Position numbers and translations under genes: made by a program
NCBI GenBank assembly: GCA_036170915.1
Contig: JAVHQC010000008.1
Coordinates: 1-64,000 of the forward strand
Reading direction: 5' to 3'
DNA length: 64,000 nt
Source of the DNA: Cyanobacteria bacterium auto_48_18
GTDB taxonomy: Bacteria > Cyanobacteriota > Vampirovibrionia > Obscuribacterales > Obscuribacteraceae
In this document: positions 7,822 to 62,035 of the stretch, in pieces
Position numbering within the stretch: position 1 is the stretch's first letter
Layout of the letters: every line of letters begins with the position of its first letter
Notes under the pieces: generated by a model
Seen by the model: only the letters and a program-made list of their open reading frames with translations
The model's database searches: none
Told to the model about the DNA's origin: nothing

Positions 7822-7847
7822 TCCATGTACCGTTAACGGTACATGGA
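7822..7847. repeat. Iterated palindrome copy (26-bp perfect palindrome)
   Basis: TCCATGTACCGTTAACGGTACATGGA. Confidence 0.95.
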
Positions 7848-7863
7848 GCGGATGTTTTGACGC

Positions 7864-7893
7864 GATTCATCAACAGTTAACGGTTGATGGATC
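7864..7893. repeat. Iterated palindrome copy (near-perfect) overlapping the EamA gene stop
   Basis: GATTCATCAACAGTTAACGGTTGATGGATC. Confidence 0.9.
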
Positions 7894-8856
7894 TCCAACT
7901 TTGATGCGCCGACCGTCTTTAATAGTCGAACTTTGCCCAATAGCAGATTGAATTTTTTTAGGCCTGGTGATTAGCCAGACAGCGCAAAGAATAACCGCGG
8001 ACGCGACGATCGTCTGAGCTGTCACCGCTTCACCTGCCAGCGCCCAGCCCAAGAAGACCGCCACGACCGGATTAACATACGCGTAGCTGGAGACTCGAGT
8101 GGGACTGGCCTTCTTGATCATGTAGAGATATGCAGTAAAGGCTACGATGGAACCGAATATTATCAGGTAGATAAACGCCAACCATGATTTAAGGCTGACT
8201 GCAGCTAATTGGAAGCCGTTGTGCTCGCCCAAAGCCAAGGAGATAAGCAGCATGATCACTCCACCGGTTGCTGTTTGCATGCCAGCCGATTGTAATTGCG
8301 ACTCAGGTAGTTTGGCGTGTCTGGCATAGAGAGATCCGGCAGCCCAACCCAATGAAGCCAGTGTCACCCAGATAACACCGACCGGATCGATAGGTGCTGA
8401 ATCTGGGCCTTTACCGGGCCCTAGCAGTAGAATCATGCCGACCACACCAACTACAAGACCGGCGATAGTGAAACGCCCTGGCACGATACCACCTGGTCTG
8501 AGCCATTGCATCAGAACGACATAGATTGGCATGGCTGCCACCATTAGCGATACCAGCCCTGATGGAATCGTTGCCGCAGCGATTACTACTCCGCCGTTGC
8601 CGATTACAAACAGAAGTATGCCAATCACGGCAGCGCGAAACCACTGCCCTGCAGTGGGATGTCGAATGCCGTTACGAGTGGCGTAAAGGTAGAGTACTGC
8701 GCCTGCAATCAGATAGCGGGCGCCAGACATAAGGAATGGCGGCAGACCTTCTAGTCCGAAACGAATAGCTAAATAGGTTGAACCCCATATCAAATACACT
8801 GCTGTAAACGCGGCAATGAGTCTGACGTTTTCTGATTTGAAATCTATGTTGAACAT
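7870..8856 (-). CDS. EamA/DMT family transporter (YedA-like)
   Basis: VYLIWGSTYLAIR, about 10 TM helices, SSYAYVNPVVAVFLG. Confidence 0.92.
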   Translation of the reverse strand: MFNIDFKSENVRLIAAFTAVYLIWGSTYLAIRFGLEGLPPFLMSGARYLIAGAVLYLYATRNGIRHPTAGQWFRAAVIGILLFVIGNGGVVIAAATIPSGLVSLMVAAMPIYVVLMQWLRPGGIVPGRFTIAGLVVGVVGMILLLGPGKGPDSAPIDPVGVIWVTLASLGWAAGSLYARHAKLPESQLQSAGMQTATGGVIMLLISLALGEHNGFQLAAVSLKSWLAFIYLIIFGSIVAFTAYLYMIKKASPTRVSSYAYVNPVVAVFLGWALAGEAVTAQTIVASAVILCAVWLITRPKKIQSAIGQSSTIKDGRRIKVGDPSTVNC

Positions 8857-9044
8857 GTGACACCTGAACCCTTCAATTCACTAAGCAATTGATTGCCTTT
8901 TGCTCAGTTTAAATACTCACCTACAACCTAATTGAATTTGGCGTTTGCGAAATATTACCTAACGAAATACAATCATAGACGTGAAATGACTAATCGCATA
9001 AGAGTCCGAATAGAATTAGGTACCTTTGGTTAGCAGGTAGGCTC

Positions 9045-9497: not shown

Positions 9498-9522
9498 TAG
9501 ACCGGTCTACTATGCTTGACAT

Positions 9523-9576: not shown

Positions 9577-9581
9577 AAGCA

Positions 9582-9603
9582 GATCCATCAACCGTTAACG
9601 GTT
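9582..9603. repeat. Iterated palindrome copy supplying the htpX stop codon
   Basis: GATCCATCAACCGTTAACGGTT; minus strand reads AAC CGT TAA. Confidence 0.93.
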
Positions 9604-14133: not shown

Positions 14134-14160
14134 ATCCATCAACCGTTAACGGTTGCTGGT
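14134..14160. repeat. Iterated palindrome copy
   Basis: ATCCATCAACCGTTAACGGTTGCTGGT. Confidence 0.93.
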
Positions 14161-14353: not shown

Positions 14354-14393
14354 GGGTAGATCCATCAACCGTTAACGGTTGATGGATCTACCC
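14354..14393. repeat. Iterated palindrome copy (40-bp perfect palindrome)
   Basis: GGGTAGATCCATCAACCGTTAACGGTTGATGGATCTACCC. Confidence 0.97.
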
Positions 14394-14806
14394 GCTGCAC
14401 TTCGGCTTCAGCAAATCCCAAAGTCATCAATCAAAAAAACTGTAAAGCTCAATGATTGGCGCAAGCTCGCACATCTAAAAACTGCACAGAGAGCGCCTTC
14501 TGTTGACAACATATGTAAGCTGAACTCTCATGGTGCAATATTGAACATTTGCGGATCGGCAGAAAGCCTCATGTTAACTGAGGGCTCAAATAGCTTATCC
14601 ACTGACCCAGTAATCAAGGTGTTTTTAAGCCCGGGCAATATTGGAGTATGAGCTCATTCCTCAATTAAAAAACTCAGACAGAAACACTTAGTTCAAATTC
14701 CATAAAAACAAGCCCATTAGCTTCTACCGCCGCCAAAGCAATTCTGCTGGCCGGTTAGTTGGTGGTGCTGTTTTTTTCTGTCAAAAACAACTATCAGGAT
14801 CCCTTT

Positions 14807-16600
14807 ATGAGTCTCAAAAACAAAGTACTGTTCATTACTGGTGCGTCCCGTGGAATCGGTCTCGCCATTGCCTTGAAAGCAGCCCAGGATGGCGCAAAAA
14901 TCGTAATTGCAGCCAAAACCACCACTGTCAACGACAAGTTGCCGGGCACCATATATAGCGCCGCAGAAGCAGTGAAAGCCGCTGGCGGTGAAGCTCTTGC
15001 TATTGCCTGTGATGTGCGCGATGAAGAGCAAATCAAGGCCGCTATTGCAAAATCAGTAGAAGTCTTCGGTGGTATCGACATTGTTATCAACAATGCCGGC
15101 GCTATCCAGTTGACGAATACTGAGCAAACCGAAATGAAGCGTTTCGATTTGATGCAGTCAGTCAATGCTCGCGCTGTCTACATGACCGTCAAGCATGCCT
15201 TGCCATATCTGAAAAAGAGCAGCAATGCTCACGTTCTCAGCCTTTCTCCGCCGATTAATCTTGATGCTGATTGGTTCGCGCCGCATCTGGCTTATACGCT
15301 GTCCAAGTACGGCATGAGCTTGTGCACCCTCGGGCTCGCTGCCGAACTGAAGAAGTCTAATATCGCAGTCAACTCACTCTGGCCGGAAACAGCCATTGAT
15401 ACGGCTGCAGTGCGCAATTTGCTTGGCGGCGAACAATCAGTTCAGGCTTCACGTAAACCTGAAATTGTGGCCGACGCCGCATATTGGATTTTCAATCAGC
15501 CGTCCAGCACCTGCAGTGGCAACTTTTTCATCGACTCGGCGGTACTTACTGCTGCCGGTGAAACCGATTTGACCAAGTACGCGGTTGACCCCACGGCTAA
15601 GTTGCTGCCCGATTTCTTCATCGGTAAGCCGCCTAAGTCTCTGCCCCGTGTCAAAGCCAATGAACCGGCCGGTAGTGCAGTCAAAGCTGCTGACGTCGTT
15701 GCCACTTTGCCCACTGAAAACGTGGCCACACCTGGCTCTGACAGTGCTGTTGTTGCAGTGTCGAGCGCCGAAGTTGCTGTCCCCACTGTAGCAAGCGCCG
15801 AAGTTGCTCCAGCGCCGAAGTACTCGTCTCTGGCCTTGAGCACCAGCAACCACGTTACCACGCTCAAGTTCACTAATCCGAAGCGTTCCAACGCCATGGG
15901 GGAAGCATTCTGGAAAGAGTTTCCGCTGGCCATCAAGGAGCTCATCGCTGCGGGCGAAACCAAAGTGCTGGTGATTTACGGAGAAGGCGACAACTTTTCT
16001 TCAGGAATTGACCTGGCCATGTTTCAGGGGCCTCTGCTGAGCGAACTGCAGGCGCAGGGCGGCAAAGACAAGTTGCTGTATCAAATCACGCGCATGCAGG
16101 ATGCCATCACCAGCGTTGAAAAAGCGCCGTTCCCGGTGATTGCTGCTGTGCATGGAGCCTGTCTCGGTGCCGGTCTTGATCTCGCCGCGGCCTGCGATTT
16201 CCGCTATGCAGACAACACTGCAGTCTTCGCCATTGAAGAAATCAACCTCGGCATCATGGCCGACCTGGGCAGTTTACAGCGCTTGCCGCTGATTATGCCT
16301 GCCGGTCTGGTGCGAGAGTTGTCTTTCACTGGTGCGCGTATCGGCAGTGACCGTGCCCTTTCTTCGGGGCTTATTAATGCTGTCTGTGCCAGCAAAGATG
16401 AATTAGTCAGTCTGGTGATGCAGATTGCCAGCACCATTGCCGGCAAATCGACAAAAGCTGTCGGAGCCACTAAGCAATCGCTCAATTACGGCCAGGATCA
16501 CGGCGTTTTTGAAGCCCTGAGCCTGACCGCCAGGTTGCAGACCAGGGTCATTGATCCGGCTGAAATTGTAGCGGCTGTGAAGAAGATCAAGAAAGCTTAG
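14807..16600 (+). CDS. Fusion of an HSDL2-like short-chain dehydrogenase and an enoyl-CoA hydratase/isomerase
   Basis: TGASRGIG, YTLSKYGMS and VNSLWP in the N-half; Ala/Val/Pro linker; FSSGIDL, AAVHGACLGAG and EINLGIMADLGSLQRLP in the C-half. Confidence 0.88.
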   Translation: MSLKNKVLFITGASRGIGLAIALKAAQDGAKIVIAAKTTTVNDKLPGTIYSAAEAVKAAGGEALAIACDVRDEEQIKAAIAKSVEVFGGIDIVINNAGAIQLTNTEQTEMKRFDLMQSVNARAVYMTVKHALPYLKKSSNAHVLSLSPPINLDADWFAPHLAYTLSKYGMSLCTLGLAAELKKSNIAVNSLWPETAIDTAAVRNLLGGEQSVQASRKPEIVADAAYWIFNQPSSTCSGNFFIDSAVLTAAGETDLTKYAVDPTAKLLPDFFIGKPPKSLPRVKANEPAGSAVKAADVVATLPTENVATPGSDSAVVAVSSAEVAVPTVASAEVAPAPKYSSLALSTSNHVTTLKFTNPKRSNAMGEAFWKEFPLAIKELIAAGETKVLVIYGEGDNFSSGIDLAMFQGPLLSELQAQGGKDKLLYQITRMQDAITSVEKAPFPVIAAVHGACLGAGLDLAAACDFRYADNTAVFAIEEINLGIMADLGSLQRLPLIMPAGLVRELSFTGARIGSDRALSSGLINAVCASKDELVSLVMQIASTIAGKSTKAVGATKQSLNYGQDHGVFEALSLTARLQTRVIDPAEIVAAVKKIKKA

Positions 16601-18540: not shown

Positions 18541-20373
18541 ATGTCTAATTCACGCAATCAGGATGAAGCAATGCTCGCTGCAGCCATTGCCGTCTACAAC
18601 AAGACCGAGCGTACCCGCGGCGACCTGCTGCAGTGCGAAGCAATTTTTCTGGAACTACTCGACGACCGCGTGGACGAACACGGCGCCAATCATGAAAACG
18701 TCGGTTACATCCACAATTATCTCGGCCTCGTTTATGCCGAGATGGACGACCGGTTCGATCAGGGTGAAGCCCATTACCACCGCGCCTTCGAAATCTATGC
18801 AAGCGAAGCAAGCAAGGCCACTGTCGCTTCCAACCACGCCAGCCTTCTCGTCAAGAAAGCCAAGCTGATTCTCGAGGAAGCGGCAGACCTGAAAGAAGAC
18901 GCTCGCGTCAGACCGGCAGTGTCCAAGGCCAAGCGTACTTCCCTGCGCGATCTTCTCCCCGGCGGCAAGGTCAAGCCAGAAGTCACGGAAAAGGAGCTGC
19001 AGACCCTGCGCGCCCTGGCCGAGACCAACGAAGAAGCCATGGAGTGCTACCAGAAAGCGGCGGAGTTGCGCGAGACGGTGGCTAACCTGCAGAGGTCCAT
19101 CGCCAAGAAGGCAGCCCTGGATAAGCCGAAGACGGCTGGCAAATCCAAGGGGAAGGGTCAGGTCGAAGCGATCACCTACAAGTCGCCGAAGGCAATCGTC
19201 GAGGTTCTCGATCAGGTGGTCGTCGGTCAGCATGCGGCCAAGCGCGGTCTCGCCAACGCGGCGTCACAGCACCTGCGTCGCATGCAGCTGAGCCCGGAAG
19301 AGCGCGCCAAAACCGACAAGTCCAACGTCTTGATCGTTGGCCCTACCGGTTGCGGCAAAACGCTTCTGGCCGAGGCCTTGGCTGGTGCAATCAACGCTCC
19401 GTTCTACCGCACAGAAGCCACCAAGCTGACCGCCTCGGGTTATGTTGGTGAAGACGTGCAGGCGGTTCTCGTCGGTCTGTTGCGTGCGTGCGACTACGAC
19501 GTCGAACGTGCTCAAAACGGTATCGTCTATCTGGACGAAATCGACAAAATCGCCGCGTCCGCCGAAACCTCGCTGGATGTGGGTGGTGAGTCGGTTCAGG
19601 AAGAGCTGCTCACTATTCTGGAAGGCACTGTGATCAGTGTGCCCAAGGATGGCAACAACCGCGGCAAAAGCGAGATGATCGAGATCGACACGACGAACAT
19701 CCTCTTCATTCTCGGGGGAGCTTTCGCCGCGCTCGGTGAGATCGTCTCCCGTCGCAAGGCCGACGAGAAGACGTCGATCGGTTTCGGCGCCGAGGTGCGG
19801 GCCAAGGAAACTGAGTTCAGCAAATATCAGAAAGACGCTGATGCTCAGGACCTGATCAAGTTCGGCATGATTCCGGAGTTCGTCGGCCGCCTGCCTATTC
19901 GGCTGGTGATCGAGACTTTGACTGTGGATCAGCTGGAGCGCATTCTGGTAGAGCCGAGGAAGGCGCTGGTTGGGCAGAAGGTTTTGCTGCTGTCTGCCAC
20001 CACCGACCTTCGCTTCACCAGGGGCGCACTGCGGGCAATCGCTGAGGATGCGCTGAAGTCGGGCACCAATGGTCGCGCCCTGCGCGAGATCATGGAACAG
20101 GTGCTGGCGCCGGTTATCTTCAATGAACCGCAGGTGGCCATCATCACCGCTGACATGGTGAAGAACCGCCAGGCCGAGACCGAAGCGCAGAACAAGCTTG
20201 ATGCCGGCGTCACTGCCAGCAGCGAGAGCAGCTATGTCATCGACGATGATGATGTGGAAGCAGTGCGTGAATCGGCCTCGGCTGCAGCGACTGCCAGGGA
20301 CCGCAAAAATCGGACCCGTCAGTTGCCGATGGTGATTCCTCTGGCACCGGCCGTGGTGCAGAAGCGGGCCTGA
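18541..20373 (+). CDS. clpX: ClpX-like AAA+ ATPase with a TPR-like N-terminal domain
   Basis: VVGQHAAK, GPTGCGKT, GYVGEDV, YLDEIDKI, IDTTNILFI, SIGFG, FGMIPEFVGRLP; AGGAG RBS; no C4 zinc finger. Confidence 0.85.
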   Translation: MSNSRNQDEAMLAAAIAVYNKTERTRGDLLQCEAIFLELLDDRVDEHGANHENVGYIHNYLGLVYAEMDDRFDQGEAHYHRAFEIYASEASKATVASNHASLLVKKAKLILEEAADLKEDARVRPAVSKAKRTSLRDLLPGGKVKPEVTEKELQTLRALAETNEEAMECYQKAAELRETVANLQRSIAKKAALDKPKTAGKSKGKGQVEAITYKSPKAIVEVLDQVVVGQHAAKRGLANAASQHLRRMQLSPEERAKTDKSNVLIVGPTGCGKTLLAEALAGAINAPFYRTEATKLTASGYVGEDVQAVLVGLLRACDYDVERAQNGIVYLDEIDKIAASAETSLDVGGESVQEELLTILEGTVISVPKDGNNRGKSEMIEIDTTNILFILGGAFAALGEIVSRRKADEKTSIGFGAEVRAKETEFSKYQKDADAQDLIKFGMIPEFVGRLPIRLVIETLTVDQLERILVEPRKALVGQKVLLLSATTDLRFTRGALRAIAEDALKSGTNGRALREIMEQVLAPVIFNEPQVAIITADMVKNRQAETEAQNKLDAGVTASSESSYVIDDDDVEAVRESASAAATARDRKNRTRQLPMVIPLAPAVVQKRA

Positions 20374-20452: not shown

Positions 20453-20874
20453 GACTCTTAGTCTTTTTGGATTGTTATATTATAATATATAGTTGTACTA
20501 TCGGCTTCATGGCCAGTTGCTTTGACTTATTCAACCGAATCCACGCAAGTAAGTTTCTTCCGCGGGCAGACTCTTGCACGCTCCTGGTGAAATTGAGATT
20601 GTCATCCGGATCTAAAAATAGACTTGCCAAATTGCAGAGAAATTTTTGAAAATTTCTCTGCGTTTTAGAAAGACGCAAAAAGACCCCTCACAAACGCCTG
20701 CACTTAAACAAACAAAAACTGAAGTCAAGCATGCCATGCCAAAAGCCAAGAGGTATCTAATAATGCGAGAATTGATGCCTAATACTCCACCTGATATCCC
20801 TTTGTTCGATATCGCCTAGGTTCGGCACTTTAATTCTCGTCTGTTTGCTCTCGTTTCACTTCACAGGGGTCTGC

Positions 20875-21762
20875 ATGAGTTCTACGAAGGCCAAGTTCGA
20901 AGCCAAGTTCAGCACTTTGTCCCATAACGCTTATGGCAAGTCAGGCATACGTTTGACCAAAGTTATTAACCACGGTGACCATCAGGAATTAAAAGAACTG
21001 ACGGCCAATATTCAGCTCGAAGGCGAGTTCGAAAACTCATATTTGCAAGGCGATAACAGCAGCATTATTGCCACCGATTCTATGCGCAACACAGTTTATG
21101 TTCTGGCCGCCGAACACGATTTAGCCAGCATCGAATCATTCGCTCAGCACCTCTGCCAGCACTTCTTAACCAAATATCCCCATGTGCAGGAAGCCAGCGT
21201 CAATCTTATTGAAGACCTCTGGTTGCGCATCGAGGCCAAGGGTAAGGCCCATCCTCATGCTTTTGTCAGTGCCGGCAATGAGAAGCGCAGCACTCATGTT
21301 AGCGGCGACAGGCAAGGCCTCTCAGTTCTTTCAGCGATTGAAAATCTGGTGGTGGCTAAAACCACCGAATCAGAGTTCTGGGGATTCATTCGCGATGAAT
21401 TCACGACATTGCCTGAAACTCACGATCGCATTATGGCCACTAGTGTTGAAGCCACCTGGACATACGACGACGATAAGTTGGCTAGCATTGATTTCAATAA
21501 AAATTACGAGACTGTGCGCCAGATTGTGCTTGAAGTTTTTGCCACACACAGCAGTCTGGCAGTGCAGCAAACCCTTTACGCCATGGGCGAAGCGGTACTA
21601 AAAGCAGTGGGCGAAATTTCTGAAATCAACATCACCATGCCTAATCAACATCGCATTGCTTTCAATCTTGAGCCTTTCGGCAAAGCCAATAAGAACGAAA
21701 TTTTTTATCCTATAGATGAGCCTTTTGGGCTGATCTCGGGCACAATTAAGCGAGGGTCATAA
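20875..21762 (+). CDS. pucL: Urate oxidase (cofactor-independent uricase)
   Basis: YGKSGI, IIATDSMRNTVY, KTT.SEF.GFIRDEFTTLPETHDRI, SLAVQQTLY, MPNQH. Confidence 0.93.
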   Translation: MSSTKAKFEAKFSTLSHNAYGKSGIRLTKVINHGDHQELKELTANIQLEGEFENSYLQGDNSSIIATDSMRNTVYVLAAEHDLASIESFAQHLCQHFLTKYPHVQEASVNLIEDLWLRIEAKGKAHPHAFVSAGNEKRSTHVSGDRQGLSVLSAIENLVVAKTTESEFWGFIRDEFTTLPETHDRIMATSVEATWTYDDDKLASIDFNKNYETVRQIVLEVFATHSSLAVQQTLYAMGEAVLKAVGEISEINITMPNQHRIAFNLEPFGKANKNEIFYPIDEPFGLISGTIKRGS

Positions 21763-23186
21763 TGTCGTCGCACCAGTCTTCCATGTTTGGTATTAGAAGT
21801 ACACGTGTCTTGCTCGATGGTGAATTTAAAGCCGCGACGGTACTGGTCAACAATGGCGTGATTTGTGATATTTCCGCCTATGATGCCACTCCTGCTCATT
21901 GCCAAATTGATGATGTGGGCACGCATGTGGTCATGCCTGGATTAGTCGACAGCCATGTACATATCAATGAACCAGGCCGTACAGAGTGGGAAGGTTTCAA
22001 CACAGCTACACGTGCTGCCGCCGCTGGTGGTATCACTACCATTTGTGACATGCCCCTCAACTGCATTCCTGTAACCACTAGCGCTCAGGCTTTTTCAGAA
22101 AAATTGAAACACATTGAAGGCCGCCTCAATGTCGATCTGTGTTTCTGGGGTGGAGTGGTGCCCGGCAATAGTGGTGAATTAAACAAAATGATCGACATGG
22201 GCGTGATGGGATTCAAATGTTTTCTCATTCACTCCGGCATTGATGATTTTCCAAATGTAGAAAGGGCCGACCTTGAGCAAAGTATGCCCATACTCGCCAG
22301 GCGGGGCCTGCCTTTGCTGGTGCATGCTGAGCTTGACTGTTCTCACGGCACTGAGCCAAGTGAAGATGAGGCCGCTCAGCAAAAACTCTTTGCAGAAGAA
22401 CCGCAAAAATATATGCACTTTCTTGCTTCACGGCCTAGAGCCTGGGAAGACGAAGCTATCAAACTGATGATCGATCTTTGCCGACAATTTGATTGCCGCG
22501 TACATATTGTTCACTTATCTTCGTCTGACGCTTTGCCTCTCATCGCTGCAGCAAAGAAGGAAGGCCTGAAAATTACTGCAGAGACATGTCCTCATTACCT
22601 CACCCTCAATGCTGAAGACATCGCCGATGGTGACACCAGATTTAAATGTACTCCACCAATTCGTGAACGCGAAAATTGTGAAAAACTCTGGCAGGGCCTG
22701 AATGATGGCACGCTTGATTTTATTGTTTCTGATCATTCGCCCTGTACCCCTGAACTGAAGCTTTTAAAAGAAGGCAATTTCGACAAGGCCTGGGGCGGCA
22801 TTTCATCGCTGCAATTTGGCCTGCCGGCAGTCTGGAGCGAAGCGTCAAAACGCGGACACACTCTTGCTCGCGTCTCGCAGTGGATGTCACAAGGGCCTGC
22901 TCAGTTTCTCGGTTTAGACAAACGCAAAGGCTCGCTTTCTCCTGGTCATGATGCTGACATTATTGTCTTTGATCCCGATCAAGAACAGAAAATTGAAGCA
23001 GCCATAATTGAGCACAAGCACAAGGTAACCCCGCATGAAGGCCGCGTCTTCAGAGGGAAAGTAAAACAGACTTATGTTCGCGGATTGAAAATTTATGATA
23101 ATGGTCACTTCTCAGATGTGCCTTCTGGTAAGGCATTGATGGGCACAAAATTGGGAGAGTATGTCGATGCAAACGTCCATTCTTGA
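21762..23186 (+). CDS. allB: Allantoinase
   Basis: PGLVDSHVHINEPGRTEWEGF, DMPLNCIP, ETCPHYL, SDHSPC, WGGISSLQ. Confidence 0.96.
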   Translation: MSSHQSSMFGIRSTRVLLDGEFKAATVLVNNGVICDISAYDATPAHCQIDDVGTHVVMPGLVDSHVHINEPGRTEWEGFNTATRAAAAGGITTICDMPLNCIPVTTSAQAFSEKLKHIEGRLNVDLCFWGGVVPGNSGELNKMIDMGVMGFKCFLIHSGIDDFPNVERADLEQSMPILARRGLPLLVHAELDCSHGTEPSEDEAAQQKLFAEEPQKYMHFLASRPRAWEDEAIKLMIDLCRQFDCRVHIVHLSSSDALPLIAAAKKEGLKITAETCPHYLTLNAEDIADGDTRFKCTPPIRERENCEKLWQGLNDGTLDFIVSDHSPCTPELKLLKEGNFDKAWGGISSLQFGLPAVWSEASKRGHTLARVSQWMSQGPAQFLGLDKRKGSLSPGHDADIIVFDPDQEQKIEAAIIEHKHKVTPHEGRVFRGKVKQTYVRGLKIYDNGHFSDVPSGKALMGTKLGEYVDANVHS

Positions 23187-24174
23187 AGCTTCTGCCTTTA
23201 CAGGATTGATTGATCTGGCCACTGAAAAGCTCGGGGGCAAAGCGCTCTGTTGCAGCGACGAATTTTTTGCTGAGAAGGAAAATTTGCTCAAGCCTGGCCG
23301 CGGTATTTTCATTGAAGACAAATATACTAAAAACGGTAAGTGGATGGATGGCTGGGAGAGTCGCAGAAAGCGGGTGCCCGGTTACGATTGGTGCATAGTC
23401 AAATTGGGATTGCCTGGTATCATCCGTGGTGTTGATATTGACACCAATCATTTCCTTGGCAATCATCCACCTTACGCATCACTGGAAGCCTGCATCGCGC
23501 CCGGTGAAGAGAATGCGGATAAACTGGCGTCGGCAAAATGGGTAGAGATTGTGCCACGGTCATCGCTAAAGGCCGGCTCGCAAAATCTGTTCGGCGTCTC
23601 TAGCAGCGAGGCTTGGACGCACGTGCGATTGAATATTTTCCCTGACGGTGGCGTGGCCCGTCTGAAAATATTTGGTGATGTTGTTCCTGATTTGAGCAAA
23701 ATTAAAGAAGACGCTCTGGTAGATCTGGCCGCTGTGGAATTTGGCGCTCGAGTGGTGGCATGCAACGACATGTTCTTCGGTAACATGGAAAACTTGATTA
23801 TGCCTGGCCGCGGCAGGAACATGGGGGATGCCTGGGAAACCAGACGTAAACGCGGCCCCGGCCACGACTGGGTCATAGTCAAAATGGGACAACCAGGCCT
23901 GGTGAAAAAGCTAGAAGTTGATACCGCTTTCCACATCGGCAATTATCCTGATACTTGCTCTATTGATGGTTGCTACTCGCCTGACCTCGACATCGATAAC
24001 CTTACCTGGCCACAAGCGACCTGGAAAGAGCTTCTGCCACAACTCAAATTGCAAGCCGACAAGCAACACTATTTTGAAAAAGAGATTATCGACATCGGCA
24101 AAATTACTCACGTGCGCTTGAATATCTACCCTGATGGTGGAGTGGCGCGCCTCCGCGTGCACTGCAAACGCTAA
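23161..24174 (+). CDS. alc: Allantoicase
   Basis: SDEFFA, DGWESRRKR, duplicated WETRRKR and RLNI.PDGGVARL repeats. Confidence 0.96.
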   Translation: MSMQTSILEASAFTGLIDLATEKLGGKALCCSDEFFAEKENLLKPGRGIFIEDKYTKNGKWMDGWESRRKRVPGYDWCIVKLGLPGIIRGVDIDTNHFLGNHPPYASLEACIAPGEENADKLASAKWVEIVPRSSLKAGSQNLFGVSSSEAWTHVRLNIFPDGGVARLKIFGDVVPDLSKIKEDALVDLAAVEFGARVVACNDMFFGNMENLIMPGRGRNMGDAWETRRKRGPGHDWVIVKMGQPGLVKKLEVDTAFHIGNYPDTCSIDGCYSPDLDIDNLTWPQATWKELLPQLKLQADKQHYFEKEIIDIGKITHVRLNIYPDGGVARLRVHCKR

Positions 24175-24191
24175 CAACAACTATAGCGATA

Positions 24192-24695
24192 ATGAATCTA
24201 GATCAACTTAACACCACCGCTGCTCAGGAACTAATGCCTGAGTTGCGGCGTTGTTGCGGCAGCGAGACTTGGGCCAGCCGGTTAATTGACCGCAGGCCAT
24301 TTGTTTCTCTTGAGCAGTTAATGCAGACCTCGGACCAAATTTGGAACGGGCTTGAGCAAGCCGATTGGCTGGAAGCTTTCAGTCATCACCCGAAGATTGG
24401 CGATTTGAATAGTTTAAAAGCTAAGTTTGCTACAACCAGTGAGTGGGCGGCTGGAGAGCAGGGTGGAGTGGCACTTGCCGATAACAAAGTGATCGAGGCT
24501 CTTGCCAGCGGTAATGCATCTTACGAACAAAAATTCGGATATATATTTATCGTTTGTGCCGCAGGCAAATCAGCAAGCGAAATGCTGGCCCTGCTACAAG
24601 AACGGCACACCAACAGCCCTGCTGCTGAAATTCAAGTTGCTATGCAAGAACAAAACAAGATTACTAGATTGAGATTGGAAAAATTACTGTCATGA
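24192..24695 (+). CDS. uraD: OHCU decarboxylase
   Basis: WLEAFSHHPKIG, GNASYEQKFGYIFIVCA, EQNKITRLRL. Confidence 0.95.
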   Translation: MNLDQLNTTAAQELMPELRRCCGSETWASRLIDRRPFVSLEQLMQTSDQIWNGLEQADWLEAFSHHPKIGDLNSLKAKFATTSEWAAGEQGGVALADNKVIEALASGNASYEQKFGYIFIVCAAGKSASEMLALLQERHTNSPAAEIQVAMQEQNKITRLRLEKLLS

Positions 24696-25033: not shown

Positions 25034-25108
25034 GAAGAGCAAAGCAGGCAGCAATAGATTTAGTTTGAAAAGTAAGTTAGCAGTTAAATAGCACATAAGG
25101 GAGTGACC

Positions 25109-28338: not shown

Positions 28339-28378
28339 AAATTGATCCATCAACCGTTAACGGTTGATGGATCAATTT
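28339..28378. repeat. Iterated palindrome copy (40-bp perfect palindrome)
   Basis: AAATTGATCCATCAACCGTTAACGGTTGATGGATCAATTT. Confidence 0.97.
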
Positions 28379-28419: not shown

Positions 28420-28447
28420 GATCATCAACCGTTAACGGTTGATGATC
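28420..28447. repeat. Iterated palindrome copy (28-bp perfect palindrome)
   Basis: GATCATCAACCGTTAACGGTTGATGATC. Confidence 0.95.
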
Positions 28448-39962: not shown

Positions 39963-39998
39963 ACTATGCCATCAACCGTTAACGGTTGAAAGCATAGT
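39963..39998. repeat. Iterated palindrome copy (36 bp, 2 mismatched pairs)
   Basis: ACTATGCCATCAACCGTTAACGGTTGAAAGCATAGT. Confidence 0.93.
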
Positions 39999-44898: not shown

Positions 44899-45855
44899 AT
44901 GAAACCTCAATTTGCGCTTAGCCAGCGCGCTATTTCGCGAGCTTGCGTTCGCTCTTTGCTGGCTTGTTTTTTCATATTCGTCATGTCAGCCGTTGTTTGT
45001 TGTCAAAGCCCCATAGTTGGCGATTCTAGCGCGGTCAAGGTGCCTTTCTTTGATTCAACCGTTAACGGTTCACGGATCAAAACAGATTCATCAACCGTTA
45101 ACGGTTCCTGGATCAAAGTGCCAGGGGCCTTATTTTTGGATACTTTAAATCCGAGTATGCGCTTGACAATCGTGAACGCAGATTCTTTGCACGCCTCTTT
45201 TGCCAATTCGCATCCGGACGGTCTGAAAGGTATTGTGATTTTGTTGGACGCCGGTCACGGTGGAAGTCAGGATGGAGCGCTCTATCACAATGTGGCGGAG
45301 AAGGATGTCAATTTAGCGGTCACCTTCAAGCTCAAAGCCAGGCTCGAGCTCATGGGAGCTACTGTGCACATGACACGAACAGCTGATATTACGCTCAGTT
45401 TGCAGGCTCGCGTCAATCGAAGCCTTAAATTGCGTCCTGACATATTTGTCAGTGTGCATGCAAATGCTAATCGCCACACGTCAATTGATGGCATCGAGAC
45501 TTACTATTACGATCGTCGATCGTCCAAATTGGCTGTGACACTGCTTAAGTCTATATCTCATGGCTTAAAGGAAAACGCCAACTGGGTTAAGCAGGAGCGT
45601 TTGTTTGTTTTGCACCATAACAATGTACCAAGTACGCTGGTTGAAATCGGCTATCTCAGTAATACCCGCACAAATTCATTGCTCAATGACAGCGCTTATC
45701 AGGAGAGTGTGGCGGAGTCTGTTGCTACTGGAATTTTCAACTACTTTCAAATCAAGAATGCGGCACGTGGTCCCCGGCCTTTGCAGAAAGTCAAATCAAA
45801 GCAACCTGCCAAAACTAAAGCTCATGCAGTGCAATCGCAAAAGCGCTCGAAGTAG
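44899..45855 (+). CDS. N-acetylmuramoyl-L-alanine amidase (Amidase_3)
   Basis: LLDAGHGG, EKDVNL, FVSVHAN, GIETYY, LVEIGYLSN. Confidence 0.93.
   Translation: MKPQFALSQRAISRACVRSLLACFFIFVMSAVVCCQSPIVGDSSAVKVPFFDSTVNGSRIKTDSSTVNGSWIKVPGALFLDTLNPSMRLTIVNADSLHASFANSHPDGLKGIVILLDAGHGGSQDGALYHNVAEKDVNLAVTFKLKARLELMGATVHMTRTADITLSLQARVNRSLKLRPDIFVSVHANANRHTSIDGIETYYYDRRSSKLAVTLLKSISHGLKENANWVKQERLFVLHHNNVPSTLVEIGYLSNTRTNSLLNDSAYQESVAESVATGIFNYFQIKNAARGPRPLQKVKSKQPAKTKAHAVQSQKRSK
45052..45114. repeat. Two in-frame iterated palindrome copies inside the amidase gene
   Basis: Cores at 45058-45069 and 45094-45105, encoding DSTVNGSRIKT-DSSTVNGSWI. Confidence 0.93.
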
Positions 45856-51435: not shown

Positions 51436-51481
51436 TTGTATTTGATCCAGCAACCGTTAACGGTTGCTGGATCAAATACAA
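51436..51481. repeat. Iterated palindrome copy (46-bp perfect palindrome), with a partial copy at about 51484-51500
   Basis: TTGTATTTGATCCAGCAACCGTTAACGGTTGCTGGATCAAATACAA. Confidence 0.97.
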
Positions 51482-51580
51482 GAGTCAGTTAACGGTTGCC
51501 CGCTGCACAATTCGCAGAAGGCGCTAAAATTAGGTGTTCGAGATTATGGCCAGCTATTGCCAGCCGTTTTAGGAGTCATC

Positions 51581-54737: not shown

Positions 54738-54751
54738 AACCGTTAACGGTT
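54738..54751. repeat. Iterated palindrome core copy
   Basis: AACCGTTAACGGTT, intergenic. Confidence 0.9.
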
Positions 54752-54879
54752 GATAGCTCTTTTTCGAAATCCATATATGTGATCAGGATGGCTAAATTTG
54801 TGCGCGCCACTTTTTATCAAAACCATTGAACTTTTCCTTGAGTTTTTACGTTTACATCAATAAGCGGAGGAAACGAAAA

Positions 54880-56004
54880 ATGGTTGAAGAAAATAAAAAC
54901 AACAAGCAACGTGCGCAAGAAAAACTCAAATTAACTGAGTTGTATGGCCAGTTTAAAGAGCAGTATCCCACCATTGAACACATCTGGTATGCCCTGTTGC
55001 AGCATGCCATAGAGGCACTGCTAATCTTTTGCAGGGAATGTGGAGCGTCCGATCTTTTGAGAAGTAAAGGTAGTAGAAGAGGCAAATGTCTTCGTTGCGG
55101 ACTGTGGCAGTCCTTAACCGCTGGTGGGTTTCTCAGCAACGTTAGACGGCCTGGCGCCTGGCTTTTTGCACTCAACTTATTGGCGAGCAAACAATTTTTC
55201 AGTAGCGAATTATTTCATGACGTTGTTGGTGTGTCGCAATCAACTGCTTCACATATTTTCAAAACTATTGGTTATGCAGTTGGTCAAAAGTTAGACGAGG
55301 ACACCACCTTAGTGAAGTCATCAGCTTTTAAAGAAGTATTTTTTCATCGCAGTCGTGAAACACCAAAAGGAAAACATCCTGCGGAAGAAGAGCTTTTCTT
55401 CGGATTGGATGATGCTGAGTGCCAGGTCGGTGGCACACCAACTGCAAGTGTCGATGATCAGACAATGTGTGATAGCGCATTGTCGAATGTGGATAGTGCG
55501 GAAGCAGCAGTGGCAGCCTTAAAACATCTATTTGCGACGCTGAGTGGGGATCAACAAAAGATCGCAAGTTTGTTGTCCAGAGATCCTGTGCATTTCGATG
55601 TTCTTATGCGCGATAGCGGGCTTACAGTGCCGCAGGCTGCGTCATCGTTAACCCTTTTGGAATTAGCCGGTGTTGCCAGCCGCATGCCTGGAGACCGCTA
55701 CGTGCTGGCAGAGATGGCACCACTACAGGTCGGCAGTGCGGTTGGTGAGACCGATGAGGACCAGGTAGACTTAACTAAGTCTCAAATCAAAGCCGTATCA
55801 CTGTTTTTGATGTTCATACGGCGAGTATTTTCTGGATTGAGTCGAAAATGGCTTCACCACTACCTAAGTATGTTTTCTTGCTACCTTGACGAAGATAGGT
55901 GGGATTACATTGCCATATCCACGGCCTGCTTTGAGGCGGGATACATCGGCGGCAGTCGCTTGCTCGATTATGTATCACCTCGACTGGTAAAATTGCCAAA
56001 TTAA
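54880..56004 (+). CDS. IS1595-like transposase-derived protein (Zn ribbon and HTH) with an internal DprA-type winged helix; no DDE core
   Basis: GGAGG RBS; CRECG..CLRC..SLTAG; VGVSQSTA; PVHFDVL...SLTLLELAG.ASRMPGDRY; VFSGLSRKWLHHYL. Confidence 0.7.
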   Translation: MVEENKNNKQRAQEKLKLTELYGQFKEQYPTIEHIWYALLQHAIEALLIFCRECGASDLLRSKGSRRGKCLRCGLWQSLTAGGFLSNVRRPGAWLFALNLLASKQFFSSELFHDVVGVSQSTASHIFKTIGYAVGQKLDEDTTLVKSSAFKEVFFHRSRETPKGKHPAEEELFFGLDDAECQVGGTPTASVDDQTMCDSALSNVDSAEAAVAALKHLFATLSGDQQKIASLLSRDPVHFDVLMRDSGLTVPQAASSLTLLELAGVASRMPGDRYVLAEMAPLQVGSAVGETDEDQVDLTKSQIKAVSLFLMFIRRVFSGLSRKWLHHYLSMFSCYLDEDRWDYIAISTACFEAGYIGGSRLLDYVSPRLVKLPN

Positions 56005-57402: not shown

Positions 57403-59727
57403 GTGAATAAGCCTGTAAATACCGCTGGGAATGCTGACTCGCCTAGGCAAACACCGAGGCCAATACCTGCTGGCGCTGAGTTTCAAGCTGGCGCTGTTGT
57501 AAACAATAGCTATGAGATAGTCGACTACCTTGGCCGGGGTGCAATGGGCTTCGTCTATCGAGCCAGGCACTTAATCTTGTCAAAGGAGTACGCTCTCAAG
57601 ACTCTTGGCGCAGACCAGGTCAATGAAACGGCCTGGCGACGATTTCAGAATGAAGCTCAAGCCATTGCCAAGATGAATCATCCCAATGTGGTGGGAATAC
57701 ACAACTTCGGTTTGCACCGCACAGCCGAAGGTTTTGATATTCCATACTACGTAATGGATTTACTCGAGGGCGGCAATCTCATGGAGCGTTTACGAGACCA
57801 TGGTGCTGTACCGTTAACGGTTGCTGTGCGTATCTTTCAGCAAGCTGCAGCCGGCCTTGGTTATGCACATAGCAAAGGGATAATTCACAGAGATGTGAAG
57901 CCTGGCAATATAGTCTTGCTTAACTCGCCAGACAGCACCGGGGCAATTCTTAAAATTGTAGATTTTGGAATTGCCAAACTTACCGATAATGAGCTCTATA
58001 GCCAGAAACTAACCAATGCGGGAGAAGTTTTCGGCAGCCCATATTACATGAGTCCAGAGCAGAGTATGGCGCTGAAAATAGATTCGAGAACCGATATTTA
58101 TTCACTTGGTGTCTCATTATTCGAGACTCTAGCCGGGGTCACACCGTTTGGCGGGAAATCAGCTGTTGAGACAATGATCAATCATCAAACTGCTCCGGTC
58201 CCGGACATCAGCACTATTGCTGGTAAGAATTTTCCAGCGGATTTGCAAAGCGTACTGGAAATTATGATGGCGAAAAAACCAGATGACCGATATCAGACGA
58301 TGCAACAAGTCATTGCAGATTTGTCTGCGCTGGAACATGGTAAACGCCCCAGTTTCCAAACTTACTTGCCGGAGGGCTCGGATGATCATTCCGATGATCA
58401 CTTTGGTTTTCGTCAGGCCTTGTCTGAACCATCTCTTCTGGCAGCAACGAGGCCAGGTCCGCATGGGGGCTCTAACTCGCTAGCCGAAACGGACGACTCC
58501 ACAGAGAAGCAGCACACAAATTTGCCCAAAGTCGTTTTCCTTTCTCTTGCAGGAACGATTCTTGTTTTATTTTCCGTTTTTTCTTTAATTCGATTCAATG
58601 ATGAAGCGAAGGGAGACACTCAAAAATCGACTTCTAAAATTTCATCTGTGAACGGGTCAGCACGCAGCAGCTTGTCGGTTTTAGCTTCAACCGTTAACGG
58701 TTCGAGAGATTATAAGAATTTGGTCGGTCAAGCTGCAGGCAAATGGCTTTCCAACAGTGCCAACGAGCATGGCAGCTCATTTAAGGAAAGTTCCGATTTA
58801 ATTGAGTCAGGTATGGGCGAACTCGAGCTGGTTGTAGATCGTGGGGAGAAAGCTGTAAAAGACTATACTGGTCAACAAGTGGTCTCGCTCAATGCGCAGA
58901 AGCTGACAGCTAAATATTCGTCCCTTAAAACTATTGGCGGCATTCGTTATCGTAGTTTTAAATTTCCCCACGATGTTTTCATCGGCTCTATTTACAGCTC
59001 CGAATTAAGAATGGAAAAAAATGCGCAGGACGCCTGGGAGGTCCCTGAAAGCGCTCGTCTTTGTTACAGTCCTTCGCTCGTGGTAGCTAAGTATCCGCAA
59101 TTTTTGAAGAGATTTAGAGCCGGCGATATATATTCCTTGTCTCTGCTTCCTATGGCCTGTAGCAATCAGCTACTAGAGCAGGTTTCTCTAATTCCAGAAG
59201 TGCACGAGCTGTCAATCAAGTATTGCAAGAGATTTACTCCGTCATGTTACTCAGCTTTTGCAAAATTCAAGACTCTTGACCTCTTGGACCTTTCAGGGAG
59301 TAATGTGGATGGCGCAACGCTGGCTAAAGCTAAAAGCCTCGGAACAGTTAAGAAGATACTCTGGTCTGATGCTGTGAAACCAGGCCCTTTCTTGAGACAA
59401 GTGGCAGGGTCGCCTAATCTCGTTGCTCTAAATTTAACAGGGTCACATCTTACCCCTGAAGATTTCCACGCAATTGCGCAGATGCCTAATTTAAAGAGTC
59501 TGGAAATTGCTCAGAATAAGCTCTCCACCGATGATCTTAGATTATTGAGCCGCTTGTCTCAGCTGACAGAGCTTAACGTTCAAGAATGCGGGCTGAAGCA
59601 GGAGGCTGTTCCAGTATTGAAACGGTTTCATTCTCTTCGCGACTTGAAGATTCTTTCCAAGGGCACTCCTGCTCGCATGAGTGAAGCACTGTTTAAAGGC
59701 CTGCCACCGAATGTGATAATTCACTGA
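57403..59727 (+). CDS. Hanks-type Ser/Thr kinase - TM - leucine-rich repeats
   Basis: GRGAMG, ALK, HRDVKPGN, DFG, GSPYYMSPE; TM helix; C-terminal LxxLxL repeats. Palindrome cores at 57810 and 58690. Confidence 0.92.
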   Translation: MNKPVNTAGNADSPRQTPRPIPAGAEFQAGAVVNNSYEIVDYLGRGAMGFVYRARHLILSKEYALKTLGADQVNETAWRRFQNEAQAIAKMNHPNVVGIHNFGLHRTAEGFDIPYYVMDLLEGGNLMERLRDHGAVPLTVAVRIFQQAAAGLGYAHSKGIIHRDVKPGNIVLLNSPDSTGAILKIVDFGIAKLTDNELYSQKLTNAGEVFGSPYYMSPEQSMALKIDSRTDIYSLGVSLFETLAGVTPFGGKSAVETMINHQTAPVPDISTIAGKNFPADLQSVLEIMMAKKPDDRYQTMQQVIADLSALEHGKRPSFQTYLPEGSDDHSDDHFGFRQALSEPSLLAATRPGPHGGSNSLAETDDSTEKQHTNLPKVVFLSLAGTILVLFSVFSLIRFNDEAKGDTQKSTSKISSVNGSARSSLSVLASTVNGSRDYKNLVGQAAGKWLSNSANEHGSSFKESSDLIESGMGELELVVDRGEKAVKDYTGQQVVSLNAQKLTAKYSSLKTIGGIRYRSFKFPHDVFIGSIYSSELRMEKNAQDAWEVPESARLCYSPSLVVAKYPQFLKRFRAGDIYSLSLLPMACSNQLLEQVSLIPEVHELSIKYCKRFTPSCYSAFAKFKTLDLLDLSGSNVDGATLAKAKSLGTVKKILWSDAVKPGPFLRQVAGSPNLVALNLTGSHLTPEDFHAIAQMPNLKSLEIAQNKLSTDDLRLLSRLSQLTELNVQECGLKQEAVPVLKRFHSLRDLKILSKGTPARMSEALFKGLPPNVIIH

Positions 59728-59749
59728 CAGAATCAAATAATTTAACTGT

Positions 59750-61990
59750 ATGCAATCCGATTCACCTGACTCAAAAAATATACGCACTAATCGACATCGT
59801 CGGACAGTGGAGCGGTTAGCATTGCGTCGCCAAACAACAAGTAACCGTCTCAGTCAGCAGCTTGGCGTAGGTAGCGGGGTTGAACCATTCGAAGTATTTC
59901 GTGCAGGCACCGTTATCGGTGGAAAATTTCGCATAGTCTCCTTAATTGGCATGGGCGGCATGGGTATTGTTTACCTGGCTGAGCATGTCGCTTTGCAGAA
60001 GCGGTATGCACTAAAAATCCTGGCACCAGATTTGGTTAATGAACAGAATTGGCTGCGCTTTAAGTCGGAAGCAAAAATTCTGGCTGGATTGAATCATCCG
60101 ACCCTGGTCAATGTCTACGACCTTGGTATCCATGCTGATTCGGTGCCATTTTATGCTATGGATTATATAGAGGGCTTTACCGTTGAAGATCTGCTTTGTG
60201 ATGCTCAACCGTTAACTGTTGATAGAACTATCGACATCTTTCTCGTCGTTCTCGATGGATTGGCATACGCCCATCGCAACGGCGTCATTCACCGCGACAT
60301 CAAGCCTGGAAACATTTTGCTTCAAGCCGGCGGGCCAGGCGTTAGTCAGTCGGTAAAAATTCTTGACTTCGGCATTTCAAAACTGCTTGATACAAGACAT
60401 GGTGAGCAGTACCTGACGGCCATCGGTGAGATTTTTGGCAGCCCTTATTACATGAGTCCTGAGCAGTGTGCGGGAGAAATAGTTGATTCCAAATCCGACA
60501 TTTATTCGGTTGGTTGTGCAATGTTCGAGACTTTAACCGGTTACGTTCCCTTTGATGGTGAAACGCCGCTTGAGACGGCTTTGATGCATCAAGAAGATGA
60601 CGTTCCGCTTCTTGGTGAGCTCTGCCAAGAAAAGCATTTTCCAGAGTCTTTGGATTTTGTCATCGGTAAATGTATGGCAAAAGCACCTGGCGATCGGTAT
60701 AGATCTGCAAAGGAAGTTGCGCTTGATCTCATTCGTATTAAAGAAGGCAAAGACGTATTCGCTTATTCAGCTGAAAGCGTAGCTAGAAGGAGCGGCAAAA
60801 GAACAGGTGGGCGCAGCGGAAGGCAAAAAAAAGCGCTCCAGCTGAGCAAGGGGATAAGTGCGCTCGGCGTGATGGGTGTCTTAGCAGTGATGGTTGGCAC
60901 GCTTACTTGTCTGCTCTGGTTGAATGTAGTGAATGAGATGCGGTCGTTAAAGCAGTCGCAAGGGGCCAAAATTACAAGCCACGCTTTAAATCATTTGCCG
61001 TCTTTTCCTGAGCCGGAAGGTATAGAAATCGGTCGAACCGTCCCCCATTCAAAAGACGATTTGAATAGCGTAGCTAAGAGTCCAGGTCGGCTTGATAGTA
61101 TGCTAGGCAACAGCGGAAACATTATGGTGGCCTTCAATCACATTCCGAAAAAAGCTCCACCGTCCAGCAAAATTAAGACCCCTTATTCATCGTTAGAGAC
61201 CGCCAGCGGAGAACGTTTTCGTACTTTTGATTTTCCTAAAGATGCATTCTTGGGATGCGTGTATGGTGACAACATTGGAGAAAGTGCAAGAGCTCAAGGC
61301 CAAGTAAGACTTAGTGATTCAGATGTATTGACATATTGTCCATCGCGCACTGCTACTCGATTTCCGCAATATTTGCAGCGGTTCAGGGCAGGAGATGTAC
61401 GAACAATTAAATTACTTAGTTTTGCTAACGATAACGAGATGCTGAAGGCAATAACAATGGTTCCTGGTGTACAGACTTTGCGACTTGCTTCATGTAAGCA
61501 GATCGATGCTCGAGGACTGCGTGTTCTTTCACGTATGCGGCATCTGCAAAGATTAGACGTGAGCGACACCACATTTGACGGCGCTATGCTGGCCGGCGCA
61601 TGCGATTGGAGCAATCTGCAAAGCCTTATCTACGGTTCTGGCACTAATGTTGGACCAATGCTTTCTGCACTTATACCATCAACAAAATTCATGGTTCTAG
61701 ATTTGAATCATGCCAGATTGAGCGATTCCGATTATCGATTACTCGCTCAAATGACTGGATTGGTTAGCCTGAATCTTTCGTACACACAAACAAACGCGAG
61801 TCACTTGAAAGCCCTGTCGCGCCTGAGTTCGCTACAAAGTCTGAATTTAGAAGGTTGCCCTTTTTCGCCACAGGTAATTTATGCCTTGCGAGATTTTAAA
61901 TCTCTAAAATCGGTCACTCTTGGTTTAGCTGAACTGCCAGAATTAAGCAAGGGGCTTAAATTAGAGCTGCCAGGAGTCGAGATTCGGTAG
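59750..61990 (+). CDS. Hanks-type Ser/Thr kinase - TM - leucine-rich repeats (paralogue)
   Basis: GMGGMG, HRDIKPGN, DFG, GSPYYMSPE; TM; LRRs; shares FP.D.F.G and PQ.L.RFRAGD with the upstream gene. Confidence 0.92.
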   Translation: MQSDSPDSKNIRTNRHRRTVERLALRRQTTSNRLSQQLGVGSGVEPFEVFRAGTVIGGKFRIVSLIGMGGMGIVYLAEHVALQKRYALKILAPDLVNEQNWLRFKSEAKILAGLNHPTLVNVYDLGIHADSVPFYAMDYIEGFTVEDLLCDAQPLTVDRTIDIFLVVLDGLAYAHRNGVIHRDIKPGNILLQAGGPGVSQSVKILDFGISKLLDTRHGEQYLTAIGEIFGSPYYMSPEQCAGEIVDSKSDIYSVGCAMFETLTGYVPFDGETPLETALMHQEDDVPLLGELCQEKHFPESLDFVIGKCMAKAPGDRYRSAKEVALDLIRIKEGKDVFAYSAESVARRSGKRTGGRSGRQKKALQLSKGISALGVMGVLAVMVGTLTCLLWLNVVNEMRSLKQSQGAKITSHALNHLPSFPEPEGIEIGRTVPHSKDDLNSVAKSPGRLDSMLGNSGNIMVAFNHIPKKAPPSSKIKTPYSSLETASGERFRTFDFPKDAFLGCVYGDNIGESARAQGQVRLSDSDVLTYCPSRTATRFPQYLQRFRAGDVRTIKLLSFANDNEMLKAITMVPGVQTLRLASCKQIDARGLRVLSRMRHLQRLDVSDTTFDGAMLAGACDWSNLQSLIYGSGTNVGPMLSALIPSTKFMVLDLNHARLSDSDYRLLAQMTGLVSLNLSYTQTNASHLKALSRLSSLQSLNLEGCPFSPQVIYALRDFKSLKSVTLGLAELPELSKGLKLELPGVEIR

Positions 61991-61997
61991 ATTGCGT

Positions 61998-62035
61998 GGT
62001 GGATCCATCAACCGTTAACGGTTGATGGATCCACC
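61998..62035. repeat. Iterated palindrome copy (38-bp perfect palindrome)
   Basis: GGTGGATCCATCAACCGTTAACGGTTGATGGATCCACC. Confidence 0.97.

Follow-up and report, generated by a model that had tools for sequence, protein, structure and literature searches.

Two groups of described systems are among those closest to the repeat considered here. In the repetitive extragenic palindrome systems (REP/REPIN-RAYT) and in TIRYT-TIR, a transposase-derived gene that does not itself jump lies beside its cognate palindrome (PMC2817692; 10.1101/2021.07.10.451892; PMC3733652). In natural transformation, the winged helix of DprA binds the helicase ComM and is needed to recruit it for branch migration, the winged helix of H. 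pylori DprA does not bind DNA, and ComM in vitro can either expand or collapse D-loops (10.1101/2024.10.21.619469). The repeat is a palindrome with the core ACCGTTAACGGT, studied in a 64,000-nucleotide stretch (the window) at positions 1 to 64,000 of contig JAVHQC010000008.1 (contig C8) of Cyanobacteria bacterium auto_48_18 (genome G000, an 86% assembly of 4.94 Mb in 39 contigs). It appears to be the cognate DNA site of the predicted product of a gene at 54880-56004, a protein that sequence comparison shows to derive from an IS1595 transposase, its DDE core having been lost and a DprA-type winged helix acquired. An earlier sequence-only reading of the window contained neither this gene nor its promoter nor the link to transformation. 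That the repeat is real and is explained at the level of a cognate gene has strong comparative support, and the transformation mechanism suggested below is a well-motivated reading of the sequences.

All 14 exact cores noted by the sequence-only reading are found at their positions in the window, as are its near-matches at 7873, 51485 and 60208, and an additional one-mismatch site lies at 59909. The abundance is indeed far above chance, with 17 window matches at no more than one mismatch compared with a mean of 0.05 and a maximum of 1 over 100 dinucleotide shuffles. The proposed 30-bp palindromic consensus, with a GTTAAC centre and GATC ends, was upheld, and so was the pairing of copies, as 8 of the 11 spacings below 250 bp measure 32-44 bp. 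The centre is loopless, the perfect arms at 7822, 14354, 28339, 28420, 51436 and 61998 are 13, 20, 20, 14, 23 and 19 bp long, respectively, and Rfam gave no match in the window. A density of one copy per 4 kb, as had been claimed, is true of the window and not of the genome, where 30 exact cores occur (14 in the window, 6 on contig C29 and 4 on C5, which continues C8 in congener G006) and 31 of the 39 contigs have none. The description of the repeat as highly iterated and HIP-like was not supported, given the same region-bound distribution and the want of over-represented short words: GATC, GTTAAC and GCGATCGC have observed/expected ratios of 0.86, 1.09 and 0.94, and genome-wide over-representation of a short palindrome is what distinguishes HIP1. 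The expectation of a new repeat system was supported, in that this one seems to be undescribed, is linked to a DNA-binding gene and is distinct from HIP1, GTAG-type REP, parS and matS, the comparisons with parS, matS and HIP1 being made to their consensus motifs; we found no published description of it in the open-licence literature, most subscription journals being outside the scope of the search.

Across 15 congeners the motif is carried only by G000, G006 and G009, in syntenic clusters, and among 40 relatives only G006 and G009 have close orthologs of the cognate gene (80% and 64% identical); these, the window gene and a second G006 copy form one clade (support 100, quick tree). The single-contig congener G003 has no palindrome cluster in its syntenic region. 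Orthologous positions of the G006 and G009 assemblies carry the sites as well, and an identical 44-bp upstream palindrome is present in three genomes, which argues against an assembly artefact. A search of 185,579 species genomes with an 18-mer matched 62 stretches, 45 of them titled Obscuribacter, Obscuribacteraceae, Obscuribacterales or Melainabacteria, 4 'uncultured cyanobacterium' and 13 other. Profiling of gene-repeat co-occurrence in 61 genomes, proposed by the earlier reading, showed that the family of the cognate gene tracks the motif: the median copy number is 20 in the 51 genomes with the family versus 1 in the 10 without it, and the motif exceeds its control in 45/51 versus 0/10. 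The family occurs in 50 of 57 genomes of the host's bacterial family (Obscuribacterales lineage), with 1-20 matches each, and in none of three from the sister family. A sample of 300 other genomes from the phylum, which included none of the host's bacterial family, yielded no member, and the query P0012 found none in plasmids or, in a search that reaches close relatives only, in viral contigs. The gene family comprises 664 clusters at 50% identity (E below 1e-30), related Atlas clusters are mostly from Candidatus Melainabacteria, and the cognate gene has nine paralogs in G000.

Palindromes stand in front of family genes far more often than in front of control open reading frames of G000. Within 400 bp upstream, a palindrome scoring at least 8 was found for 50/85 family genes versus 24/600 controls, and a palindrome, an array or CGATATCG for 67/85 versus 32/600; the genes were picked from the relatives' match list rather than at random, and two were dropped for short flanks. 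Of a further 20 genes from previously unused genomes of new genera, 12 have a palindrome and 17 show either signal. Most commonly the core is CCGATATCGG, and a GTTAAC centre recurs beside genes only 26-33% identical to the cognate gene; palindrome centres vary between families and are mostly self-complementary. The window gene has a single upstream site, to which some paralogs add a downstream one or by which they replace it.

Dispersed copies are concentrated in the 50-70 kb or so around the gene, and paralogs differ in their site. In G000, 15 of 24 GTTAAC loci lie within 70 kb of the cognate gene on C8 (0.6 expected), 4 of 7 AGATTGATATC loci at the paralog on C4, and 4 of 4 GGATxGATATC loci at that on C20; a GCAGAG repeat shows no peak at a paralog. 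Twelve of 22 non-adjacent loci in G003 fall within 60 kb of a family gene (p 3e-5). For G347 the clustering was predicted beforehand; this genome has 43 copies of ACCGATATCGGT, of which 12 are within 40 kb of the gene at 2.379 Mb versus 0.67 expected, a count that leaves out the gene's own upstream site and was made with two of five family matches not located; the gene at 4.416 Mb has 2 sites nearby. Among the matches listed for G338, at least 11 sites are within 25 kb of the gene versus 0.62 expected, and hybrid centres are common in that cluster.

The protein owes its N-terminus to the IS1595 family (PF12760 plus PF12762). Family alignment A3 matched the transposase of the intact G003 IS1595 with 99% hhalign probability (E 6e-18) over 119 N-terminal columns, covering the zinc ribbon and helix-turn-helix (HTH), and 18 of 44 family members partially match NF033547; the C-terminal alignment is weak (probability 4%, E 0.009), and we consider that part probably homologous. 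The DDE domain PF12762, present in the intact element, is not among the best 25 of 32 families listed for alignment A1 nor in three short members, and a 273-aa model has no multi-stranded sheet in the DDE-core region. The winged helix, PF17782, was detected in all 44 members of A1 (Pfam E 2e-14) and in the cognate protein is 51% identical to the C-terminus of the host DprA. Unlike IS1595, the locus has no 8-bp target duplication and no pair of terminal inverted repeats (TIRs; the best upstream/downstream match is 14 of 20), and paralogs within a genome are never identical, reaching at most 84% versus 99-100% for the intact element; the cognate gene is therefore not an active insertion sequence (IS). 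Its dN/dS of 0.19 against the G006 ortholog indicates purifying selection. G003 itself holds an intact 1004-bp IS1595 in three copies (99-100%) with 8-bp target duplications and TIRs whose inner parts resemble half-sites. The resemblance of intact TIRs in this lineage to half-sites, with which they share GGTTGATG and GGATAAC, suggests that the site may descend from two IS ends. A ribbon-helix-helix (RHH) gene at 39183-39776 on the reverse strand, encoding a 197-aa protein with a HicB-like N-terminus, is unusually conserved (92-99% in congeners); it was rejected as the cognate factor, being 92% identical in motif-less G003.

As in REP-RAYT systems, several divergent gene-repeat pairs coexist in one genome and gene presence tracks repeat abundance. 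Three features that define REP-RAYT are absent here, namely the HUH/Y1 domain of RAYT (IS200/IS605), the GT(A/G)G head and the two flanking inverted repeats. The cognate protein is IS1595-derived; PF01797 was not found in G000, G003, G005, G006 or G009, with positive controls in 6/14, and a RAYT was rejected accordingly for G000 and these four congeners. A GTRG head occurs on only 5 of 60 arms, and two symmetric sites account for four of these; there is usually no loop, and the gene has one upstream site. REPs number up to hundreds per genome versus tens of copies peaking round the gene here, and, unlike REPs as described there, these sites enter coding sequence without indels. The main text of PMC3733652 has no word starting GTTAAC or GATATC.

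The winged helix and the promoter connect the family to transformation. DprA has the same PF17782 domain, and comM has the same promoter-like element as the family; the family domain has a median 45% identity to that of the host DprA and keeps the LTMLELxG helix of the LxxLELxG interface, with E261 retained in 135/150 members, the mapping to V. cholerae E353/L354 being by motif reasoning without alignment of that sequence. Unlike DprA as described in 10.1101/2024.10.21.619469, the winged helix is fused to a predicted sequence-specific DNA reader rather than to a core that binds single-stranded DNA and loads RecA, and the protein would load ComM at chosen sites. Co-occurrence with comM, which in G000 lies at C29:101252-102835, is uninformative because comM is near-universal (56/61 genomes). 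Ten family genes, in two groups on a quick tree, encode no winged helix; upstream of each is a tandem array whose unit measures 35-37 bp and recurs about 7-16 times in the arrays counted, an arrangement found at none of 75 genes with the domain, and they retain the RSETP-type segment. In G003, 29 of 31 copies of a pattern covering three arrays sit inside the arrays, and the other two are more than 100 kb from those genes. These three arrays are thus without dispersed sites, and in this one genome tested dispersal tracks the presumed ComM-binding domain.

Just upstream of 83/87 family genes is TGAAC(T/C)-N15-19-CGT, a pattern scored without its own control, which resembles promoters of extracytoplasmic function (ECF) sigma factors. 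A matrix built from non-G000 genes gave 38 matches of at least 18 bits in G000 versus 3 in the reversed genome. These precede 9 of 10 G000 family genes and also an ECF sigma with its anti-sigma, comEC, comF-like, comM/YifB, yraN, radC, priA, recJ, dnaE and 5'-nucleotidase genes, as we take them to be from their Pfam domains, together with DUF6088 and toxin-antitoxin genes. In G003, the first 30 of 40 pattern matches include the ECF sigma, comM, recJ, dnaE and eight family genes. An autoregulated ECF sigma with a zf-HC2 anti-sigma (C23:45659-47176 in G000) heads the set of comEC, comF, comM, yraN, radC, priA and recJ, which may form a regulon for competence or envelope stress in this uncultured lineage.

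We suggest that the protein recruits ComM to specific sites and thereby biases natural transformation in the neighbourhood of its own gene, with the result that linked sites accumulate, an account to which we give an even chance. Made together with the competence genes, two copies of the protein would use the transposase HTH to bind one palindrome, either in the chromosome or perhaps where it forms a hairpin in single-stranded DNA entering the cell. Its winged helix would dock ComM as that of DprA does, loading the helicase at the sites, and recombination near the gene would be biased, either by collapse of D-loops from gene-less donors (protection from curing) or by extension of those from site-bearing donors. 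New sites would be kept only while linked to the gene, hence a local peak over about one transforming-fragment length, and symmetrised arms and short duplications would arise incidentally where recombination stalls or is aborted at a palindrome occupied by the protein. We infer palindrome binding, ComM contact and the direction of effect from the sequences; protection or kin preference would be favoured over direct invasion because a naive recipient has no protein.

Several observations weigh against this proposal. It offers no explanation of how a first new site is written, and no demonstration of natural transformation in this lineage was found in the literature consulted. The promoter set holds envelope-stress-type genes (Spy-like, TolC-like), lacks dprA by matrix and by pattern, and includes xseA and recA by a looser pattern only, the recA match lying 365 bp upstream, so that a 'competence sigma' is at best presumptive. 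Nine of the 24 GTTAAC loci are far from the cognate gene, neither a site nor a cluster is evident for the C25 and C15 paralogs of G000, and copies of the C23-type palindrome occur throughout the genome without a peak at its paralog; motif patterns in G000 other than the window repeat were partly chosen after viewing the genes. G352 and G378 have 8 family matches each yet only 4 and 1 motif copies, and the p-values are overstated because the genomes compared are related. Mean arm symmetry over all 30 sites is not above that of shuffled sequence (p 0.09-0.9), and the window protein deviates from the family consensus at Y324, Q326 and W333. G006 (C125) has a second GTTAAC-type paralog, 40-45% identical and with its own 50-bp upstream palindrome, that is missing from the 86% G000 assembly; a G000 ortholog of it might account for some of the distant sites.

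How sites change bears on the foremost alternative, a catalytic RAYT-like mobiliser. On this account the protein, by means of a non-DDE active site (R157-S158...H166...E170 with R322-K323-Y324), would nick or cut palindromes in cis and make local copies of them, and the winged helix would be accessory. At orthologous places the 12-bp core is retained and the arms vary; sites have been gained or lost with an indel (14142), with an inverted flank duplication (51436) and with a tandem triplication (C29:360285), and four perfect arms of 19-23 bp run past the 15-bp consensus into the flank, versus 0.1 expected. These events suit a mobiliser, as do the near-invariance of the segment that replaces the DDE core (in 150 members, R157 is kept in 149, S158 in 146, T161 in 146 and E170 in 147), family-specific and mostly self-complementary centres, and the fact that transposases typically act in cis. 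The structure models are confident (pLDDT 86 and 93), but fold searches with the full model gave winged-helix matches only, and the 273-aa core had no clear match (best Z 5.2; ISCth4 transposase Z 3.5, 163 aligned), with no nuclease, recombinase or tyrosine-recombinase fold among the matches listed. Moreover, the kinase-gene sites stand as P-L-T-V without an indel, winged-helix-less paralogs keep the segment yet have no dispersed sites in G003, and the shared promoter is left unexplained. A hairpin-processing enzyme, of the kind raised by the sequence-only reading, keeps some probability, but no catalytic domain was matched in the cognate protein; we consider the mobiliser improbable. In G009 the ortholog of the site at 39975 follows a slipped run of GGTTAAC units, and at 57718-59284 G006 is without about 1.6 kb of the first kinase gene, two sites included.

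The clear fold matches, all of them winged-helix regulators, would fit a domesticated transcription regulator or ComM decoy, whose upstream palindrome, set at a fixed place about 50-170 bp before the family promoter, would be an autoregulatory operator, with competence tuned by ComM titration and dispersed sites as passive by-products; purifying selection on the gene is in keeping with this. Core competence genes, however, have no such palindrome, 6 of the 24 GTTAAC loci in G000 are inside coding sequence and 3 between convergent genes, the neighbouring genes have unrelated functions, and the gene-centred clusters are left unexplained, so that we find this account unlikely. Less probable still, and slight in our view, is a chromosome-organising site of the parS or matS kind, each paralog marking a domain and perhaps replacing ParB. 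ParB was not found in G000 or in five congeners (G003, single-contig, and G005, G006, G009 and G013), and the clustering of sites over a region of about 110 kb is reminiscent of a parS field; but the parS consensus has no match nearer than 2 mismatches, the syntenic G003 region, about 0.5 Mb from dnaA (a distance taken from G003 alone because the G000 assembly lacks dnaA), has no cluster, clusters follow the gene wherever it is placed, including unrelated positions, and the family has 0-20 copies per genome, with 7 of the 57 genomes lacking it. The parS/ParB and matS candidates were rejected, and the host nucleoid or segregation site of the earlier reading is correspondingly disfavoured. A methylase-linked HIP-like element or an assembly artefact, to which the GATC ends, the GTTAAC centre and the habit of long palindromes to break assemblers lend some colour (the sequencing run may be the assembly's own source and so not independent, and no RNA run is among those listed for the locus), is largely refuted by the word counts, regional distribution and shared sites given above and is scarcely credible.

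The recruiter proposal also differs from other systems linked to transformation. DNA uptake sequences (DUS) of Neisseriaceae and Pasteurellaceae are likewise short motifs in permissive places, coding sequence included, and are thought to spread by recombination or molecular drive (PMC2397512); as characterised there they are genome-wide and act at uptake, unlike the present palindromic, local and paralog-specific sites, which would act at recombination. Mobile-element inhibitors of transformation reflect a conflict between accessory DNA and chromosome curing in which ComM is a frequent target (PMC12378983, Table 2), but those tabulated disrupt, repress or block competence genes or degrade DNA globally, and none in that table is a site-specific ComM recruiter. 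More tentatively, and with the chances against it, the family may represent a new class of selfish chromosomal gene that exploits the transformation machinery of its host rather than a transposase: it would lay a palindrome field over about 100 kb, load ComM there and block gene-less or favour gene-bearing DNA, winged-helix-less paralogs would be cheaters whose 35-37-bp arrays capture the ComM recruiters of others, and DUF6088 genes would form a parallel system with the same promoter.

If correct, these suggestions would mean a second origin of the domesticated-transposase-plus-palindrome arrangement, independent of RAYT/REP and without a recognisable catalytic domain, and a gene that steers the transformation helicase ComM to chosen DNA sites. 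They would make the chromosome-curing hypothesis testable at one locus, supply a mechanism for the local spread of short repeats, and draw attention to natural competence, and to what regulates it, in uncultured Obscuribacterales. The protein-site variants, numerous and paired in nature, lend themselves to studies of specificity.

Table 1. Palindrome sites and the cognate gene in the window.
Position	Strand	Feature	Source
7822..7847		Dispersed perfect 26-bp palindrome with the CATGT arm at either side	
7873..7884		Variant site, ACAG half, 44 bp from the 7822..7847 site	
9590..9603		Dispersed site between convergent genes	
14140..14155		Dispersed site; missing at the orthologous G006 place (indel)	
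14354..14393		Dispersed site, perfect 40-bp palindrome reaching into flank	
28339..28378		Dispersed site, perfect 40-bp palindrome; one site in G006 and G009 where G000 has two	
28420..28447		Dispersed site, perfect 28-bp palindrome	
39972..39989		Dispersed site, kept in G006 and G009	
45057..45106		Site pair, 36 bp apart	
51436..51496		Perfect 46-bp palindrome plus half-site; 32-bp inverted left-arm copy inserted relative to G006	
54738..54751		Palindrome at the family's conserved upstream position, ~80 bp before promoter; partly decayed; perfect 46-bp palindrome in G009	
54826..54852	+	ECF-sigma-type promoter-like element, TTGAACTTTT-N13-CGTT	
54880..56004	+	Cognate gene P0003, 374 aa: IS1595-derived Zn ribbon and HTH, RSxETPxxxHPxxE segment, acidic linker, DprA-type winged helix, IS1595-like C-terminal helices	
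55030..55287	+	Zn ribbon (C51, C54, C70, C73) and HTH, homologous to IS1595 transposase N-terminus; presumed site reader	hhalign
55345..55389	+	Near-invariant R157-S158-x-x-T161-P...H166-P167-x-x-E170 segment; putatively structural or a non-canonical active site	
55534..55692	+	DprA_WH (PF17782) domain; presumed ComM-recruiting module	Pfam
57810..57821		Site within Ser/Thr kinase gene, read P-L-T-V; no indel versus G003	
58689..58702		Site within first kinase gene (same as 57810 site), other frame	
59909..59920		One-mismatch site, hybrid centre, within second kinase gene; membership uncertain	
60208..60219		Variant site within second kinase gene, read P-L-T-V	
61998..62035		Dispersed site, perfect 38-bp palindrome between convergent genes	

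Other repeats were seen alongside. Five DUF6088 (AbiEi-like) paralogs of G000 (C25:105914-106618, C35:228255-229100, C22:30499-31300, C15:59451 and C22:109261) share the ECF-type promoter, three of them with a long inverted repeat 65-100 bp upstream of it; one such repeat is the GCAGAGAAATTT repeat, with 70 sites genome-wide including one at window position 20650. Two G003 homologs have the same layout, and by this arrangement the DUF6088 genes look like a second, parallel gene-palindrome system. A palindrome family of the form A6-TACC-(TCCGGA or TTTAAA)-GGTA-T6, with a TGCGCA variant, occurs at 34323-34348 and in about 25 other places genome-wide, one copy lying upstream of a truncated paralog (C23:36738-37505) that is itself without the RSETP segment. 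One Obscuribacteraceae assembly has a dense TTTCAACCGTTAACGGTTGAAA field of 24 loci on four contigs, some as 56-66-bp tandem units and none with a family gene within 1.5 kb. Genes elsewhere in the window include an SDR-crotonase fusion (14759-16600), a TPR-ClpX-like fusion (18541-20373) and an operon for degradation of urate to allantoate (20845-26569).

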